Of a DNA stretch of 64,000 bases, positions 25,668 through 63,257 are shown piece by piece. Made by a program: the position numbers and the translations under genes. Numbering within the stretch: the first letter of the stretch is position 1; each line of letters begins with the position of its first letter. The DNA is from an uncultured archaeon (lineage in GTDB: Archaea; Nanobdellota; Nanobdellia; Pacearchaeales; GW2011-AR1). The stretch is from assembly GCA_963845205.1 (NCBI GenBank), contig CAWJRC010000004.1:105040-169039 (forward strand). Direction: 5' to 3'. The notes beneath the pieces are model-generated. The model worked only from the letters and a program-made list of their open reading frames with translations. It had not been told where the DNA came from and searched no databases.

Positions 25668-26258
25668 TCATTTAACTGCAACAAAAATATCCCTGCCTTT
25701 CTCTTTTGCTTCATATAATGCATTATCGACTCTTTCCTGAAATTTTTTCTTTGTGTCATTTTTTTTGAACTGAGTAATTCCGCCGCTTACAGTTAATTTA
25801 TATTTCTTTAAGAAAGCGTCGTTATGAACTGCTCTTCTAAGCCTTGCTGAAAATTTTTTGGCTTTTTCAAGATTTGTTGCCGGAAGAAGCATCATAAACT
25901 CTTCCCCCCCAAATCTAGCAGCAACATCTGATTTTCTGATTTGAATTTTTATTATGTCTGCCAATTTTTCAAGCAACTCATCTGCTTTTATATGCCCGTA
26001 TTTGTCATTTATTTTCTTGAAAAAATCTATATCAATCATAACAAGGGAAAGCTTTTGATGTCCTCTTTTTGCTTTTTCAATTTCCATCTCCAAAAAAGTT
26101 TCAAAAAATTTGTTGTTGTATAATCCTGTCTTTTCGTCATGGATTGCAGCATCATAAAGCATCGAAACAGATTCGTTTATTGAAGCGAACAGATCCTGAA
26201 TCTTTTTTCTGAATCTTGGATCAAGAGCAGAAAGCTTATCACCCAACTTTTTATCCAT
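25668..26258 (-). CDS. stand-alone GGDEF-domain diguanylate cyclase (intact GGEEF and RxxD I-site)
   Basis: LVMIDIDFFKKINDKYGH, RKSDVAARFGGEEF, TVSGGI, DNALYEAKEKGRD. Confidence 0.8.
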   Translation of the reverse strand: MDKKLGDKLSALDPRFRKKIQDLFASINESVSMLYDAAIHDEKTGLYNNKFFETFLEMEIEKAKRGHQKLSLVMIDIDFFKKINDKYGHIKADELLEKLADIIKIQIRKSDVAARFGGEEFMMLLPATNLEKAKKFSARLRRAVHNDAFLKKYKLTVSGGITQFKKNDTKKKFQERVDNALYEAKEKGRDIFVAVK

Positions 26259-53312: not shown

Positions 53313-53382
53313 TATGATATGCCCTGCCTTAAAAATTTAATTATTTCCACAACGCTTAAAAATCCTTATTATCATATTATTC

Positions 53383-53645
53383 TGTAGACTAGGTCAGCGG
53401 ATTAGCCCTCCGCTATTTGCAAACGGGCTTTAGGCAGACTGCAAGAAGGCAAGTGAGTAAGATGTTGAATTGTCTTTATTCCAACGTTGACGCTTTGTCT
53501 GTTTTGATCTTGCATATGCGAAATGGGTCAGGCCCTGATCGGAGCAGCCCTAAACATTTGACTAGGTGCTTAACAGAGTGCAAGGCCGAGAAAGAATAGA
53601 GGAAGCACTTCAGTTTTTTACAGGCAAACCTTCGAGTCTACACTT
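53383..53645 (+). ncRNA. ffs: putative signal recognition particle RNA (7S/SRP RNA)
   Basis: GC-rich island in AT-rich DNA; GGUCAGGCCCUGAUCGGAGCAGCC resembles SRP helix-8 consensus (..CAGGUCCGGAAGGAAGCAGCC); 8-bp terminal helix tgtagact/agtctaca; internal hairpin agcgga-ttagccc-tccgct. Confidence 0.5.
53626..53645 (+). repeat. 20-bp direct repeat copy 1 (aaaccttcgagtctacactt) = 3' end of putative SRP RNA
   Basis: identical to 54183..54202. Confidence 0.85.
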
Positions 53646-53654
53646 AATTTTTAC

Positions 53655-53912
53655 CTATCTTTCATAAATGTTTTTCCTATGACCTATCTTAATTATGTTC
53701 ATTCTGTTGTTTTTTTGATCAAAATCAAAAATAACCCTGTAGTCTCCAACTCTTAATCTAAATGCCGATTCCCCCTTTAATCTTTTGAATTCTTTTGCTT
53801 TTGGATTTTCCGAAAACTCTTTAACATATTTTATAATCCTTTTAGACAACAATGATTCAAGTTTGCTCAGAAAGTCTATGGATTTCCTGCTCCAAATTAC
53901 CTCATAATTCAT
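53655..53912 (-). CDS. relE: RelE/ParE-family toxin
   Basis: FRLRVGDYRVIFDFDQKNNRMNIIKIGHRKNIY. Confidence 0.8.
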   Translation of the reverse strand: MNYEVIWSRKSIDFLSKLESLLSKRIIKYVKEFSENPKAKEFKRLKGESAFRLRVGDYRVIFDFDQKNNRMNIIKIGHRKNIYER

Positions 53913-54136
53913 TTTAATCCAAACATCCTTTCGACTTCTTCCTCAGTATAAAATTCTCCTTTCTCAATTTTTTTTCTTGCTTCTTTAATCTCTTTCTTTG
54001 TTTCTTCATTTAATTCCAAATGATCTTCAAGCAAAACTTCAATTATATCATTGTAAGTCTCCCGTTCATGAAGTTTTAACTTGTCAAGCATTGTTTTTGT
54101 CTCGGGATTTATTCTAATTGTTGTTTCCATATACAA
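53909..54136 (-). CDS. type II antitoxin (RelB/RHH-like), overlaps relE by 4 nt
   Basis: 75 aa; TIRINPETKTMLDKL...; C-terminal EIEKGEFYTEEEVERMFGL antitoxin-like tail; palindromes tatacaattgtata / atacatatgtat at its 5' end. Confidence 0.6.
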   Translation of the reverse strand: MYMETTIRINPETKTMLDKLKLHERETYNDIIEVLLEDHLELNEETKKEIKEARKKIEKGEFYTEEEVERMFGLK

Positions 54137-54182
54137 TTGTATACATATGTATATTTAAACTTTCTTGTTTTAATTCTATAAG

Positions 54183-54202
54183 AAACCTTCGAGTCTACAC
54201 TT
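54183..54202 (+). repeat. 20-bp direct repeat copy 2 (aaaccttcgagtctacactt)
   Basis: perfect copy of 53626..53645; the 537 bp between copies contain only the relBE pair. Confidence 0.85.
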
Positions 54203-55534
54203 TTAATCCAGCTGCCAGTTTATTGTGTATTCTTTAGATATTTGCTGGGTATAACCTGTTATATAATCTGCAGCTTCTGTTACATTCTGATCAATAATAA
54301 ACTGGCTTATCATGTTCTGCTCGGCTACGCCAAAGTCACTCGGAGCAGCATTTGAAGTTGCAGGGAAAACATATTTGGAAGATATAAAATCAAGAACAGC
54401 TGTCTTCTGATACAGATCATAATTAGTTACATTAGCGTCGAAGCGGGCAGAGATAGATCCCTTCAGAGGATTGAATGCATCCTGTCCTTTTTCTGAGCCG
54501 ACAACAGTAAGCCATTCTTCTGCGCTTTCATGATGCTTTATATTTTTAGGAAGCTGGAATGCATCAATAACAATTCCGTACATGTTTGATGTTTCCGGTA
54601 CAGGGAATGTTCCGTAATCTTTGTTGTAAGTCAGGTTCGCGGCTATGAACTCGCCGTCATTCCAGTCGCCGTCTATGTTGAACGCGCTCTCGCCATCAAT
54701 AACCCTGTCTGTAGCAGCATTCCATGTTATGTTCGCGCTGTCAGGATTTACATAGCTGAGATATTTTTTAAAAATAGCAAGAGAGTTCAAAAGCCGAGGA
54801 TCATTTGCAGAAATTACTTTCCCATTTATCCAGTCCTGATAGAAACCAATACCCTGGCTCGCGACAATCTGGTCAAATGCAAATGCAGCTGTCCATGCCT
54901 GTCCCATCTGTATAGGATACTGAATACCATCTGTCTTCAATTCATCGCATGCAAGGAAAAAAGAACTCCATGAAGTTATAGACTGAGTATCGATTCCGTA
55001 CTTGTCAAGAAGAGGCTTGTTGTACCAAACTAAATTGCTTCTCTGCATGTCAGCAGGAACAGAATAATAATGCCCGTCGAACTGGCACATTGCCTGAATA
55101 GTCTTCGGAGTAACATTTTCAAGATTATCTTCCTGCCAGATATTGTCAACAGGATCAAGAAGACCAGCGTCATAATATATCTTGGCCTCGTATCCTGCAT
55201 GAGCCTCGAAACTGTCAGGGGCCTGGCCGCTGAAAACTAAAGGCTTGAGAACATTAAACAAAACAATTCCTCCTCCGCTCGAAGAGAGACTGAAAACAGG
55301 GGTCGGAAGAACAGTCACATTAGGATATTCTGAAAGATAAACATTAATCAGCGCATTCAAAGCAGCCTGCTCTCCGACAGAAGTCCACTGATGATAAAAA
55401 GTAAGGACATTTGCCGGCTGCTGAACCTGAGACAAATAGCTAATCAGAAAACTTCCGGCAATAACCAAGCCAACCACGCAGATTATTACTGCAACCAAAA
55501 TAACAGAATTTAATTTTACTTTTACTGTTTTCAT
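54203..55534 (-). CDS. extracellular solute-binding protein (ABC-transporter SBP family 1-like), membrane-anchored, no permease/ATPase nearby
   Basis: N-terminal TM anchor; SBP-like bilobal pattern; 443 aa. Confidence 0.45.
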   Translation of the reverse strand: MKTVKVKLNSVILVAVIICVVGLVIAGSFLISYLSQVQQPANVLTFYHQWTSVGEQAALNALINVYLSEYPNVTVLPTPVFSLSSSGGGIVLFNVLKPLVFSGQAPDSFEAHAGYEAKIYYDAGLLDPVDNIWQEDNLENVTPKTIQAMCQFDGHYYSVPADMQRSNLVWYNKPLLDKYGIDTQSITSWSSFFLACDELKTDGIQYPIQMGQAWTAAFAFDQIVASQGIGFYQDWINGKVISANDPRLLNSLAIFKKYLSYVNPDSANITWNAATDRVIDGESAFNIDGDWNDGEFIAANLTYNKDYGTFPVPETSNMYGIVIDAFQLPKNIKHHESAEEWLTVVGSEKGQDAFNPLKGSISARFDANVTNYDLYQKTAVLDFISSKYVFPATSNAAPSDFGVAEQNMISQFIIDQNVTEAADYITGYTQQISKEYTINWQLD

Positions 55535-55608
55535 CTTTCCTCTTTAACAGATAATTTAATTATTTTAAATATTTAAATTATTCGTATAAAATTAGCAACT
55601 CTTTATCT

Positions 55609-56196
55609 TCATTTTTCCAAAGGAAGAAATCCTTTAACTTCCTCTTTTGATAACTGCCTGTAGGTATCACATTCGTGTTTTAAATGCCAAGAAAATTTAG
55701 TTTCAAACCCAATGTTTTCAACTTTCTTTCCGACTTCTTTTACAACTTTGATTGCTGGAACAAAATCCCCATCTGAAGAGACTAATATTGCAGTATCATA
55801 AGCATTATTATAAGCCAACTTAACCATATCAACTGCCAAGTTTATGTCATCTTCTTTTACCATATAACAAATCTTACCATTTATGGTCTCTTTTTGCATT
55901 CTGCATAAAATTAGATTAAAGCAAGGTATTTTTCTCAATTTATCAAAAAATTTCTGCTGGTTGGCATAAATTTCCTGTCCAGTTTTTTTCGCCTTTTTTG
56001 GGGTAATATAATTTTTATCCAAGGGAGCTGTGTAATAATAGGTTCTAACAAGCATTCTATTTCCTACAAGAGTTTTTGTAAATTTATCAAAATCAAATTC
56101 AGATAAACAGTCAGGATCATCATTAATCATCTTTTTAACGATATGATAATGATTGCTGCCGTCAATGAATACTATAACTTTTTCTTTATCGTGCAT
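55609..56196 (-). CDS. NYN/LabA-like domain protein
   Basis: VIVFIDGSNHYH..., AILVSSDGDFVPAIKVVKEVGKKV. Confidence 0.65.
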   Translation of the reverse strand: MHDKEKVIVFIDGSNHYHIVKKMINDDPDCLSEFDFDKFTKTLVGNRMLVRTYYYTAPLDKNYITPKKAKKTGQEIYANQQKFFDKLRKIPCFNLILCRMQKETINGKICYMVKEDDINLAVDMVKLAYNNAYDTAILVSSDGDFVPAIKVVKEVGKKVENIGFETKFSWHLKHECDTYRQLSKEEVKGFLPLEK

Positions 56197-56555
56197 AGAG
56201 TTAGATAAAGAAATAACTTAAAAATATATCGTAAAATATGAACCCAGCTTTGCCGAAGCAATGCTGGGGAGTATATAATAATAATAATAATAGGGGATTT
56301 AAAAATGTTTATTTTATAGCTACGGGCAGTATTCCCTACTGCGCTAATTGTTATTTTAATGATAGCACTATTGATGATACTTATTACAACAGTATTGATA
56401 ATTGTTATTACAATTAACAATTCAGGTAATGAGTCAGTAATTAGAAATATAAAACTTACTGCAACTTAACAAAAAAGGAGAAAATTACGACAATTCCTTA
56501 TTCTTAACATTTTATAGTTCAAAAAGTTAATAAAGTCTTTCTGGTTTTTTAATAA

Positions 56556-57431
56556 ATGAAAAATAAGAGGGGGCAATTTTTCATTATTGCTGCAATAATC
56601 ATAATAACAGTGATAATAAGCATTGTAACTGTCTCGAATTACAGCCAGCCGAAACAGACAACAAAACTTTATGATCTTGGACAGGAACTGGGAATTGAAA
56701 GCCAGCAGGTTCTTGATTACGGAACATACAACGAGCTAAACGATACTGAGATGCAATCACTAATGGAAAATTTCATCCAGAATTATGTAAGCTACATGGG
56801 AGGAAAAAGGAATATTTATTTCGTGTTCGGAAACGCGCAGGTCATTGACGTTGTCGGTTATCAAGAGTTATTAAACGAAAGCGTCTGCATAACATTAAAT
56901 CCTGTAACTCATGTTTGCGGGGACGGAACTGCAATAGCAGGAGAGGGATGCGATGTAAACACAAGCATATTCGGGGATATAGGATGCGCAGGCGACTGCC
57001 AGCTTGAACAGCCCGGATGCAATATTTCTGCTGCTTCAAATGAAACAGTAAATGAATCAACAGTAAATCCCGGAGAATACTGCGACGGAAATAATATGAG
57101 CGGGCTCAACTGCACTTCATTCGGATTTGACGAACCTGCAAGCGAACCTCAGGGACAGACAGCACTTCAATGCACTGCACAATGCGGATTTGACACTTCC
57201 GGATGCGTAATTCCACAGCCGCAGAATCAGCCAGAATGCCAGAACCTCACTGTCCTCGGACAGCCGCAATCACCTCAGCAATTTCCAGAAGAAAACGGTG
57301 CAATTTCAAAAGTAGCGATAAACCTTGCAGGAAACCAGTATGAATTCGCGCTCAAGCCCGGAGAAAATTTCTATTTTGTAATCTGGGAAACAGAAAACGG
57401 AGAAAAAAATGTTATTACAAGCCCGCAATAA
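56556..57431 (+). CDS. secreted Cys-rich protein with class III (type IV pilin-like) signal peptide
   Basis: MKNKRGQFFIIAAIIIITVIISIV; 20+ Cys in C-terminal half. Confidence 0.5.
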   Translation: MKNKRGQFFIIAAIIIITVIISIVTVSNYSQPKQTTKLYDLGQELGIESQQVLDYGTYNELNDTEMQSLMENFIQNYVSYMGGKRNIYFVFGNAQVIDVVGYQELLNESVCITLNPVTHVCGDGTAIAGEGCDVNTSIFGDIGCAGDCQLEQPGCNISAASNETVNESTVNPGEYCDGNNMSGLNCTSFGFDEPASEPQGQTALQCTAQCGFDTSGCVIPQPQNQPECQNLTVLGQPQSPQQFPEENGAISKVAINLAGNQYEFALKPGENFYFVIWETENGEKNVITSPQ

Positions 57432-61184: not shown

Positions 61185-62267
61185 TTACTTTCCAGATTTG
61201 ATACGATTATCGTGTTTACATAGCATCTGACAATTTTCAGCAGTAGTTTTCCCACCCTTACTCCACGGGTCTATATGGTCTCCTTCCATTTCTTCTATTT
61301 CAAAATGCTTCTTACATTTTGGACAAATGCCTTTTTGTCTTTGGTATGCTTCTCTTTTTTGGTTAGATGTAAACTCACGAAGATTAAGGTATTTTTCATC
61401 TCTTGTTAAAATATAGGGAAAAATACCTGACTTCTTTTCAACTTCATCATCCTGCATTAATTTTGCTATTTCTTTGTCTATTGCTTTTGAGTTAAACTCT
61501 TTATCTTTAAATTTATTGTATAAAGTCCCAAAGTCTACTCCTTTCATTTCTTTATAGTAAGTGGAAAAAATTGCTTTTATCCAACTTATAACACTTTGAA
61601 AATATAACCATAATTCATTTGCATTAGGTTTATCCTGATTTTTAGCCATATATCCCTCTATCTTTCCATTACTAATCCAGCTAATCGCAGTTTCTAAATA
61701 ATCTTGGCGAATTGGAACTCCTGTTAGATAATCCTTTGCCATGTTATATGCTGGGCAACCTGTTTTACTAAAATGCCTTTTTGCGTCAGTTAGCCAAGTT
61801 CCTGTATAAATAGCATTTCTTAATTCTTGGTCGGTTAATTTTACTCCTGCAATATTTATTATTTTAAACCAATCCAACTTTTCTTTATCTTTTCCTTCAC
61901 AGAAATAAATCATCAATTTGTAATTTAGAATTTTCTCTTTTTCGTCATTTGTAAGATTATGAAAATATTTGAAATCTAATGCAAACTTTCCATCAACATA
62001 TTCACAAAAACTTATTGTCCTTTGCTGTCCATCCATTACTTCAAAAGTCCCATCTTCATTTTTAACCCAATACATCACATTTAAAGGAAAACTTTTGTTT
62101 ATTGTTTCAATTACAGCATCTCGCTGTTTATCTTTATAGATAAATTCTCTTTGATATTTTGGACGGATGTTTAATTTTCCTTTATACCCAATAACTCCTT
62201 CTTCTTCATCATTTTTGTATCCTTCTACGACATCTTTAATTGGTATTTGTTTAAGCTCTATTTTCAT
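61185..62267 (-). CDS. DUF262 (ParB/GmrS-like, DGQQR) + C-terminal HNH nuclease protein
   Basis: VMDGQQRTISF; C-terminal CPKC...DHIDPWSKGG...N...LC..CN HNH motif. Confidence 0.75.
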   Translation of the reverse strand: MKIELKQIPIKDVVEGYKNDEEEGVIGYKGKLNIRPKYQREFIYKDKQRDAVIETINKSFPLNVMYWVKNEDGTFEVMDGQQRTISFCEYVDGKFALDFKYFHNLTNDEKEKILNYKLMIYFCEGKDKEKLDWFKIINIAGVKLTDQELRNAIYTGTWLTDAKRHFSKTGCPAYNMAKDYLTGVPIRQDYLETAISWISNGKIEGYMAKNQDKPNANELWLYFQSVISWIKAIFSTYYKEMKGVDFGTLYNKFKDKEFNSKAIDKEIAKLMQDDEVEKKSGIFPYILTRDEKYLNLREFTSNQKREAYQRQKGICPKCKKHFEIEEMEGDHIDPWSKGGKTTAENCQMLCKHDNRIKSGK

Positions 62268-62291
62268 AGAATAATATCCAAAAAGAATTAT

Positions 62292-63257
62292 TTAAACATT
62301 CTTATTCTTTATTAGAATACGGACATATTTCTCTTTATCTTCTCCTTCAATAATTCCCCTATGCCTATGTTCTGGGTCTTTCCTTAGAGATTCAACTTCT
62401 GGAGATTTATCTCCACTATGGGTCTGCCCAATTATCTCAAATTGTTCTGGGTTATATTTATCTAAAAAAGTTAATGGAACTCCCATTACTCCTTTATAAT
62501 CTATTGGAATATCACTTACTTTATCAACATTTATAGCATTATAATTTTTATATTTAGGATAATCTTTTGGATTATATTTTTTGTAAAGAATTAAATTTTC
62601 GTGTCTTTTCTTATTGTCCAAATTGGTTAACCATACAATTGTCCCCATACTAAAGAATTTAGTCCCATTTTCTATTTTCTTTCTTGATTCCGTGGTTATA
62701 TCATAGTGTTCTGGAACTTTAAACCATTTTGTCCCACCATTATCAATTCCTAACCAAATTTTATTTTTTTTGATAAATTCAAAAGTATCTTTATTAGTGA
62801 GAGCATTTTGGTTTCCAATAATTAAAAACTTTTTATTGTATTTCATTAATTGAGCGATATATTCTCTAAATAAAGAGAAGGGCGGATTCGTAACAACAAT
62901 ATCAGATTTTTTTAATATTTCTATACATTCAGGGCTTCTAAAATCTCCATTTTGTTTCAAGGGAGTTTTTATTGTATTTCCATTAGTCTTTTCTAATTTA
63001 TAAGATGGTTTTTTGGTTTCAAAGTGTGTTGCTATTAATTTTTTTAATCCAAGAAATTTAAAATTTAAAGCAAAGTATTTCCAAAAGTTACTTTCTTCTG
63101 GGTCATCGCAATTAAGAAAAATAATTTTATTTTTGAAATGTTCTTTATAATGTCCTAACTCTTTTTCAATATCTGTAAGATTGGTATAAAAATCATCATT
63201 CTTAGCTACATTTGCCTTATGTAAACTTTTATTTAGGGTTTTCTTTTCCATTTCCAT
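62292..63257 (-). CDS. putative N6-adenine DNA methyltransferase (DxFYT...NPPF motifs, EcoRI-methylase-like)
   Basis: NDDFYTNLTD, IVVTNPPFSLFREY; overlaps upstream ORF by 29 nt. Confidence 0.55.
   Translation of the reverse strand: MEMEKKTLNKSLHKANVAKNDDFYTNLTDIEKELGHYKEHFKNKIIFLNCDDPEESNFWKYFALNFKFLGLKKLIATHFETKKPSYKLEKTNGNTIKTPLKQNGDFRSPECIEILKKSDIVVTNPPFSLFREYIAQLMKYNKKFLIIGNQNALTNKDTFEFIKKNKIWLGIDNGGTKWFKVPEHYDITTESRKKIENGTKFFSMGTIVWLTNLDNKKRHENLILYKKYNPKDYPKYKNYNAINVDKVSDIPIDYKGVMGVPLTFLDKYNPEQFEIIGQTHSGDKSPEVESLRKDPEHRHRGIIEGEDKEKYVRILIKNKNV

Follow-up and report, generated by a model that had tools for sequence, protein, structure and literature searches.

How does a short pair of toxin and antitoxin genes come to lie at the very end of an essential RNA gene, between two copies of that gene's last nucleotides? 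This question is raised by a 64,000-nucleotide stretch of DNA from an uncultured archaeon of the Pacearchaeales (contig CAWJRC010000004.1, positions 105,040 to 169,039), which we refer to as the window. Directly downstream of its gene for the signal recognition particle (SRP) RNA, the window carries a RelE-like toxin gene and an antitoxin gene, together called the cassette here. An original prediction, made from the letters of the DNA, had read this arrangement as the scar of site-specific integration into the 3' end of a stable RNA gene, flanked by attachment site (att) copies of the RNA 3' end. Our comparison with related loci and contigs, designated by L numbers below, points to one ancient insertion that duplicated the end of the SRP RNA gene while leaving the gene itself intact, and that most probably came about by site-specific recombination.

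Two copies of the SRP RNA 3' end bracket a toxin-antitoxin pair

The 20-mer AAACCTTCGAGTCTACACTT is present exactly at 53626-53645 and again at 54183-54202, with a spacing of 537 bp between the copies (53646-54182). No further copy exists within the 64-kb window, even when up to 3 mismatches are allowed, and the number expected by chance is 0. Perfect 20-bp direct repeats had been predicted at these two positions, along with a search for extra copies; both positions proved exact, and the repeat is not common elsewhere in the window. Between the repeats lie only two open reading frames (ORFs), both on the minus strand, which encode the toxin and the antitoxin, and the ORF list and the Pfam matches agree with the earlier claim that nothing else fills the interval. 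Inverted terminal repeats were not found at the ends of the insert.

The proximal copy (53626..53645, + strand) consists of the 3' strands of two helices of the SRP RNA, the CCUUC helix and the terminal helix, plus 2-3 trailer bases. The distal copy (54183..54202, +) is a piece of the SRP 3' end in a displaced position and directly adjoins the stop codon of a convergent gene for a solute-binding protein. Just inside it, a segment at 54160..54182 (+) is homologous to the L007 sequence TTTAGTTTTTTAC, with ~14/22 positions in common. In L007 this sequence is still an exact copy of SRP sequence, and in the window it appears to be the decayed inner part of the displaced fragment.

Three independent Logan assemblies from other samples reproduce both junctions and are 100% identical to the window across both repeat copies, so the locus is not an assembly artifact. 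Some Logan contigs break within it. Contig L002 (window 54202-52099) stops exactly at the outer edge of the distal repeat, at 54202, and contigs L001 and L059 end at the 5' end of the SRP RNA (at 53383, and at 53412 with a 30-nt overlap). These breaks imply branch points in the assembly graph, that is, co-occurring relatives that share these sequences and differ beyond them. We considered whether the end of L002 at 54202 could be the junction of a circle and rejected this idea, as no corresponding branch is seen at 53626; more likely, L002 stems from a co-occurring relative whose right flank is different.

The proximal copy is the functional end of an SRP RNA

The SRP (7S) RNA gene is ~262 nt long (53382..53645, +). 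In a local scan by E-value, the Rfam model Archaea_SRP (RF01857) matched 53382-53643 (+) over its whole length (model positions 1-317) with 69.5 bits and E=3e-15. A default Rfam scan of the window returned four tRNAs only and no SRP RNA, because 69.5 bits does not reach the gathering score of the model, 96.5 bits. Ten related SRP loci were recovered, of which L007/L008 and L055/L056 were found via homologues of the toxin and the others (L013, L035, L036, L037, L041, L043, L044, and L045) by scans with the helix-8 motif. In GTDB representative genomes, the helix-8 pattern gave one true match (L013) and one unrelated match in Rhizobiales. Scores are similarly low across this set: together with the window, the RNAs of L007, L013, L035, L036, L041, L043, L045, and L056 span 69-87 bits, and only that of L037 reaches 96.9. 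The window's SRP RNA is 88% identical to that of Candidatus Pacearchaeota archaeon RBG_19FT_COMBO_34_9, and its relatives point to a Pacearchaeota-like DPANN archaeon as its source.

The consensus fold of nine SRP sequences contains 88 pairs, 37 of them with compensatory changes. The helix-8 motif GGUCAGGCCCUGAUCGGAGCAGCC (53526..53549, +), which belongs to the SRP54-binding region and served as the search pattern for recovering relatives, is invariant in 9/9 aligned SRP RNAs. In the terminal helix, TGTAGACT at 53383-90 pairs with AGTCTACA at 53635-42, and the helix covaries, GUAGACU/AGUCUAC being replaced by GUAGACC/GGUCUAC in L013 and L036. The next helix, GAAGG/CCUUC, is likewise supported by compensatory changes in relatives, and the 3' strands of both helices lie inside the 20-mer. 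Given the full-length model match and the covariation, which includes the helices inside the 20-mer, we conclude that a genuine SRP RNA is encoded here and that the proximal copy forms its functional 3' end. The prediction had both named this RNA as SRP RNA and assigned the first repeat copy to the 3' strand of its terminal helix; the first claim is upheld by the RF01857 match (below the gathering score), the covarying pairs, and the invariant helix 8, and the second by the pairing and its compensatory changes in relatives. The 3' end is also the same as in relatives without an insert and keeps both terminal helices, meaning that the target gene was regenerated intact.

The gene has its own TATA box, TTAAAAAT (53356..53363, +), ~20 nt upstream of the RNA 5' end and conserved in L007 and L013. 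The RNA 3' end is followed at once by a run of five T residues (53648..53652, +) that may serve as an archaeal terminator. Of the window and L007, only the window has this run; the 11-nt stretch that contains it is absent from L007.

The inserted module and its promoter

The toxin (53655..53912, -; 85 amino acids [aa]) belongs to the RelE/ParE superfamily, with a match to PF05016 (ParE_toxin) of 31.2 bits against a cut-off of 23. Its best matches among solved structures are 2KHE and 1WMI (aRelE of Pyrococcus horikoshii), with 3G5O (Rv2866) as a further match. Homologues of the toxin (n=252) occur mostly in metagenome-assembled genomes of Pacearchaeota and Nanoarchaeota. The antitoxin gene (53909..54130, -) lies upstream of the toxin gene, and the end of the former and the start of the latter overlap by ATGA. 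It encodes 73 aa from an ATG at 54130, or 75 aa from a TTG at 54136; the ATG is likely the true start, and the gene is called as 73 aa in all assemblies. The protein matches DUF7557 (26.9 bits, cut-off 25) and, weakly, RelB-like and VapB families, and is probably of the ribbon-helix-helix type. With both families above their Pfam cut-offs, the cargo is the minimal relBE-like toxin-antitoxin (TA) module that had been predicted. The cassette is convergent with the SRP gene, and the distance from the toxin stop codon to the SRP 3' end is 9 nt in the window and 0 nt in L007.

Synonymous divergence in the module between the window and L007 is 0.23-0.43. The ratio of nonsynonymous to synonymous divergence is 0.07-0.12 for the toxin and 0.05-0.12 for the antitoxin, and from these values of ~0.1 we conclude that the module is maintained by purifying selection.

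The TA operon has a TATA box, TTTAAATA (54152..54159, -), that is invariant in 7 cassettes from different contexts. Its distance to the downstream ATG, ~22-29 nt, implies that the mRNA is leaderless. Two perfect 14-nt palindromes, TATACAATTGTATA at 54130-43 and TATACATATGTATA at 54140-53, occupy the space between the TATA box and the ATG (54130..54153, either strand) and form a candidate operator for the antitoxin. The prediction had described them as adjacent palindromes at the antitoxin start; they are indeed perfect and so placed, but they overlap rather than merely adjoin. In homologous cassettes, the corresponding position is occupied by a dyad around G(G)TATAC(C) whose arms differ. This layout would fit an operator at which the antitoxin blocks initiation. 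The pair today is most likely an ordinary autoregulated type II module, in which the antitoxin would bind the promoter-overlapping palindromes and neutralize the toxin, whose activity would be the cleavage of ribosome-bound mRNA. Transcripts of the TA operon might, in addition, have an antisense effect on the SRP RNA.

Related loci with empty sites

A single SRP 3' end with no cassette is found at five related Pacearchaeota loci: L013/L044, L041, L035, L036, and L045. Exact-seed and local-alignment scans detected no second SRP 3' copy in L035, L036, or L045. The comparison with orthologous loci that accompanied the prediction has therefore turned up uninterrupted SRP 3' ends that carry one copy of the repeat.

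In L013/L044 and L041, the SRP gene is followed within ~100-250 nt by an ortholog of the window ORF at 56556..57431 (+), which has a T2SSE match and is the first gene of a pilin-like/T2SSE operon. The ortholog in L013 is 43% identical in amino acids (E=1e-56), and others are present in L036, L041, and L008. This gene is the conserved right-hand neighbor that closes a variable interval downstream of the SRP gene. In the window, the interval beyond the distal copy and outside the repeats (54203..56196, -) contains genes that are absent here in relatives and that Pfam matches identify as a solute-binding protein gene (54203-55534, -) and a gene for an NYN-domain protein (55609-56196, -). In L008, two unrelated small genes accompany the cassette and the distal copy in this interval, and in L036 it is occupied by ~1 kb of tandem repeats and small ORFs. 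Given these differing contents in the window, L008, and L036, we regard the interval as a variable islet beside a conserved RNA gene. We also considered whether the cassette and the solute-binding and NYN genes might together form one island. We rejected this possibility, as there is no decayed repeat at the far end of the interval: exact, 3-mismatch, and local-alignment scans of 54203-56555 found no third, degenerate SRP-3' copy.

Several other observations concern this interval. Tandem repeat units lie directly downstream of the SRP gene in L035 (~60 nt each, 1270-1440) and in L036 (~93 nt each, 2262-2640), and the ~40 nt that directly follow the SRP end are common to both loci. In the window, a very stable hairpin, CCCAGCUUUGCCGAAGCAAUGCUGGG (56243-56269; -18.5 kcal/mol, z=-4.26), lies in the AT-rich DNA that separates the NYN gene from the pilus-like operon. 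The first 28 nt of contig L061 (ERR11523656) mismatch the window inside the solute-binding protein gene (L061 1-28 versus window 54849) and may stem from strain variation or from a junction.

The same insertion in other lineages

Two further lineages carry the cassette beside the SRP gene. In L007/L008, the toxin is 88% identical to that of the window, and a block of 842 bp is held in common at 91% identity. One end of this block lies inside the distal copy and the other 26 nt upstream of the SRP RNA, with the cassette and the RNA in between; beyond either end, the flanks differ. The distal copy of L007 reads TAGACTCGAAGGTTTG and then TAAAAAACTAAA, which amounts to ~32 nt of the SRP 3' region in blocks of 16 nt and 12-14 nt, with a 4-nt gap and without the outermost CACTT. 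This longer copy, together with the diverged homologue at 54160-54182 of the window, indicates an original duplication of ~32-37 nt, of which the perfect 20-mer of the window would be what survives.

In L055/L056, the toxin is 86% identical to that of the window. The junction between the toxin stop codon and the SRP fragment is kept position for position, abutting TCGAGTCTACACTT, and the fragment is separated from the complete SRP gene by 31 nt in L055 and ~97 nt in L056. A neighbor-joining tree of SRP RNAs places the window, L007, and L056 in one clade, and the neighbor-joining tree of cassettes, ((window, L007), L055), L004, is congruent with it. This congruence argues for a single ancient insertion that was passed on by vertical descent to at least three lineages.

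Between the window and L007, the core of the distal copy shows 0 changes in 15 nt, and its inner part shows 8 in 22 nt (P=0.008). Such a conserved core could result from gene conversion or from a function of the site. We set functional constraint aside, given that the copy is truncated in L007 and mostly lost in L055/L056, and on the same grounds we view the distal copy as a decaying relic that was possibly homogenized by gene conversion.

A second insert at the same 3' end

The cassette is not the only insert at this position. In L043, a degenerate second SRP 3' copy, GCAAACGCTCGGAGTCTACGCTT, lies 83-105 nt past the true end, with a local-alignment score of 24 against a 95% null of 19. By alignment, the non-coding segment of ~80-100 nt between the SRP end and the second copy is located at L043 3186-3292, L056 606-717 (-), and L055 1057-1100 (-). 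It carries a perfect palindrome, AGGTTTGCGCAAACCT, composed of an inverted and a direct copy of an SRP motif. The L043 segment aligns with the spacer of L056, and the spacer of L055 is the same apart from an internal deletion of ~66 nt; both second copies have CGCTCG where the SRP gene has CCTTCG. The gene downstream of the segment is a P-type ATPase gene in L043, as in L035, and the cassette in L056.

That a second insert is bracketed by SRP-3' repeats in L043 and L056 indicates that the site has recombined more than once. The segment was either gained twice or lost several times, and in both cases these few nucleotides took part in more than one event. We also asked whether the insert of L043 and L056 could encode a structured RNA, and we rejected this candidate: folding gave z-scores without significance (-1.55 and -0.57), and nothing in Rfam matches it.

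How the insertion may have arisen

Given that the duplication spans tens of nucleotides and regenerates the 3' end of a stable RNA, that relatives have empty sites, and that terminal inverted repeats are missing, we favor site-specific recombination. One ancient recombination at the 3'-terminal sequence of the SRP gene would have duplicated ~32-37 nt, most probably in the style of an attP x attB exchange, and the recombinase would have acted in trans or disappeared afterwards. The SRP gene would have stayed intact throughout, the proximal copy being its regenerated 3' end and the distal copy the displaced fragment, and after the insertion this fragment and the DNA beyond it would have decayed or been replaced. 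An empty site would read GTTTTTTACAGGC-AAACCTTCGAGTCTACACTT-TTAATCCAGCTGCC, and the junction of an excised circle or a tandem would read GTTTTAATTCTATAAG-AAACCTTCGAGTCTACACTT-AATTTTTACCTATC.

In terms of the predicted att scar, the repeats, the intact target, the empty sites, the ancestral duplication of ~32-37 nt, and the second insert all speak for it, but a recombinase, a free form, and an independent re-insertion did not come to light. Site-specific integration is nonetheless the most economical reading of the locus. The data show the anatomy, the identity of the SRP RNA, the empty sites, the single origin, and the purifying selection, whereas action of a recombinase, operator binding, and toxin activity are inferences. 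We regard the descriptive parts of our explanation, taken alone, as close to certain, and the whole, with a site-specific mechanism included, as probable by a modest measure.

Several results weigh against this reading. An integrase had been predicted to be absent, and none turned up: the insert holds the two TA ORFs only, and among the 47 window ORFs that we scanned against Pfam, covering 40 of the 55 ORFs of at least 150 aa, we found no integrase, transposase, or Cas1. Seven of the scanned proteins, each of at least 240 aa, have no Pfam match of any kind. The precomputed Pfam lists of the related loci contain no recombinase either. Neither a close relative of the cassette nor an attP-bearing free form was found in the viral, phage, and plasmid collections that we searched. 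On viral contigs, a 15-mer core of the repeat had 20 matches, which we attribute to chance because none extends past the 15-mer and none has an SRP or TA context. Searches of viral contigs with the toxin, both as a single sequence and as a 26-sequence profile, returned bacterial-prophage-type relatives only, at no more than 44% identity over most of the toxin, with higher identities confined to fragments of 25-54 residues. A blastn search with the SRP gene plus cassette gave no match among plasmids and phages.

The shape and history of the insert raise further objections. Its two edges lie close to the repeats, at 0-11 nt on the proximal side and ~9-30 nt on the distal side, and with such tight bounds around 537 bp, a deletion derivative of a larger element would have needed two very precise deletions. 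The comparisons point to a single event, with no repeated targeting by this cassette in the loci at hand, and a single, vertically inherited event does not establish the cassette as an active SRP-targeting element. In L055/L056, the distal copy upstream of the promoter is truncated, and the cassette there is not flanked by two copies. Exact-protein look-ups with the toxin, the solute-binding protein, and two further proteins, one of 214 aa encoded upstream and one of 291 aa encoded downstream, found no excised or circular form, no same-species empty site, and no alternative junction, all returns being 100% identical to the window except L061, at 99.97%.

Copies of the cassette in other contexts belong to the same side of the balance. 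Related antitoxin-toxin pairs with 75-85% nucleotide identity occur at six unrelated loci (L004, L009, L048, L050, L052, and L057), none of which has an SRP RNA nearby or flanking repeats, and the cassette of L004 is the sister of the SRP-linked copies. Conservation among cassettes extends only from the TATA box to the toxin stop codon, and the DNA homology of the window to L004 and L009 ends at the TATA box. Since copies in other contexts lack both SRP RNA and repeats, we conclude that the cassette is a minimal transcription unit that changes location now and then and has no intrinsic link to the SRP gene. Some of these contexts have features of their own. In other Pacearchaeota, namely at L009 (4385-9948), L048 (2102-4188), and L050 (759-5912), LemA and sometimes Metallophos are followed by the cassette and then by an Lhr helicase or Peptidase_M48, which suggests that the LemA/Lhr context is an older resident location of the cassette. 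In L052, 177 nt separate the cassette (646-1121, ~76% nucleotide identity) from a tRNA gene (397-469), on the 5' side of the latter.

Could the same locus have arisen without a dedicated integrase? Campbell-type homologous recombination would give an identical architecture if the host's RadA-type machinery inserted a small circle bearing the cassette and ~37 nt of SRP 3' sequence. The absence of an integrase among the scanned window ORFs agrees with such a route, as does the conservation of the SRP gene, which at 85-97% between relatives is the best-conserved sequence of the neighborhood and hence a good homology anchor; archaea are also able to recombine over short homologies. We nevertheless consider this route rather unlikely. 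It requires a prior circle in which the cassette was already joined to an SRP fragment, and hence an earlier SRP-adjacent copy, yet no such circle or donor was found in the viral, plasmid, and phage searches, and by itself the route leaves the second, unrelated insert of L043 and L056 unexplained. That second insert bears also on a duplication by repair or replication, in which a staggered break or template switching just downstream of the SRP gene led to capture of the cassette, fill-in duplicated the last 30-40 nt, and only events that restored the essential RNA persisted. The palindrome AAGGTTTGCGCAAACCTT downstream of the SRP gene in L043 and L056, with its inverted and direct SRP motif, resembles a product of fold-back or template switching. 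Movement of the cassette family between unrelated sites without repeats suggests that illegitimate recombination is its normal mode, and both repeat copies could be derived from the host, the distal copy of L007 carrying that locus's own TTTAG variant. On the other hand, repair is not known to produce, as a regular outcome, clean direct duplications of ~37 nt that stop exactly where an RNA gene stops, and the presence of two different inserts at the same few nucleotides speaks for sequence specificity. We judge an origin by repair to be decidedly unlikely.

Transposition can be dealt with more briefly. A short insert flanked by direct repeats would suit a transposon, a miniature inverted-repeat transposable element, or a casposon, with the 20-mer as its target-site duplication, but the insert ends have no terminal inverted repeats and the window ORFs scanned include no transposase or Cas1. 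Moreover, other copies of the cassette lack flanking duplications, and their conserved ends reach no further than the TATA box and the stop codon. At 20-37 nt, the duplication also far exceeds the target-site duplications that transposases usually make. This origin seems to us extremely improbable.

Site-specific integration, which we prefer, has a bolder version. The SRP 3' end might be a live attachment site in Pacearchaeota, at which a recombinase encoded elsewhere, perhaps by a virus or plasmid of these symbionts, inserts and removes mini-cassettes that lack an integrase, the TA pair and the 80-100-nt hairpin element among them. We find this version doubtful; if true, an essential RNA gene would be acting as a platform for small cassettes, and it would be the first archaeal SRP RNA attB.

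Comparison with known systems

The duplication of tens of nucleotides at a stable-RNA 3' end, combined with empty sites, is the signature of islands that tyrosine integrases insert into tRNA and tmRNA genes, an Islander-type architecture (PMC4383910). In both cases the stable-RNA gene is regenerated, a displaced 3' fragment lies at the far end, relatives have empty sites, and the identity block measures tens of nucleotides and runs to the 3' end of the gene. The locus described here differs in that the target is SRP RNA, the insert measures 0.54 kb, no integrase was found in or near it, and neither excision nor independent integration was found.

A closer parallel in terms of target is the Enterococcus faecalis phage phiEf11, whose attB lies inside ffs, the gene for the bacterial 4.5S SRP RNA, and was presented in 2025 as a novel site (PMC12540744). 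Both cases involve an SRP RNA gene as the attachment site, in the window a probable one, and a short identical core (27 nt in phiEf11) at both junctions near the RNA 3' end. However, phiEf11 is a complete bacterial prophage with its own integrase beside attP, and an altered 4.5S 3' end has been reported for it (PMC12540744). The window is archaeal, carries a TA pair only, with no integrase found, and its SRP 3' end is unchanged compared with relatives. Neither "SRP" nor "7S RNA" occurs in a review of archaeal tyrosine recombinases from 2021 (PMC8371274), and the paper on TIGER/Islander contains no mention of "SRP," "4.5S," "signal recognition," "non-coding RNA," or "ncRNA."

The cargo itself resembles aRelE-aRelB of Pyrococcus horikoshii (1WMI), with the antitoxin gene first, overlapping genes, small proteins, the RelE/ParE fold signature, and a palindromic promoter operator, which in the window is a candidate. 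Unlike that pair, the window's antitoxin matches DUF7557, with weak RelB and VapB matches, and the module abuts and converges on an essential RNA gene, which is an unusual location.

Islets that are flanked by att sites and lack recombination genes are known from Firmicutes as cis-mobilizable elements (CIMEs), where they occur beside integrative and conjugative elements with known integrases. The window insert is similarly short, has attL/attR-like repeats and no integrase of its own, and could in principle be moved only by a recombinase acting in trans. In contrast to CIMEs, it has no known partner element or recombinase.

Other features of the window

Two further observations lie outside the locus. 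At 61185-63257 (-), a gene with GmrSD_N and HNH endonuclease domains adjoins a gene for an EcoRI-type adenine methyltransferase (E=2e-123), likely as a restriction or defense pair. At 25668-26258 (-), a 196-aa GGDEF protein (E=1.5e-42, with a weak Cas10 palm match) is encoded beside a tRNA-Ser gene; such a protein seems to us unusual for an archaeon.

Implications

Taken as a whole, the locus looks like an att-like scar at an archaeal SRP RNA gene that contains a TA pair only: old, single, apparently immobile, and with ordinary cargo. Its interest lies in the target. While tRNA and tmRNA genes are textbook insertion sites, our literature search gave a single case for SRP RNA, that of a bacterial phage. 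Standard annotation would leave the SRP genes of this Pacearchaeota clade uncalled, along with anything inserted in them, and island-finding tools keyed on tRNA genes and integrases would miss scars of this kind. The mobilome of DPANN archaea is almost unknown. Should the SRP 3' end prove to serve as a true attachment site in this group, it would constitute a new class of target and would point to a recombinase and to mobile elements there.

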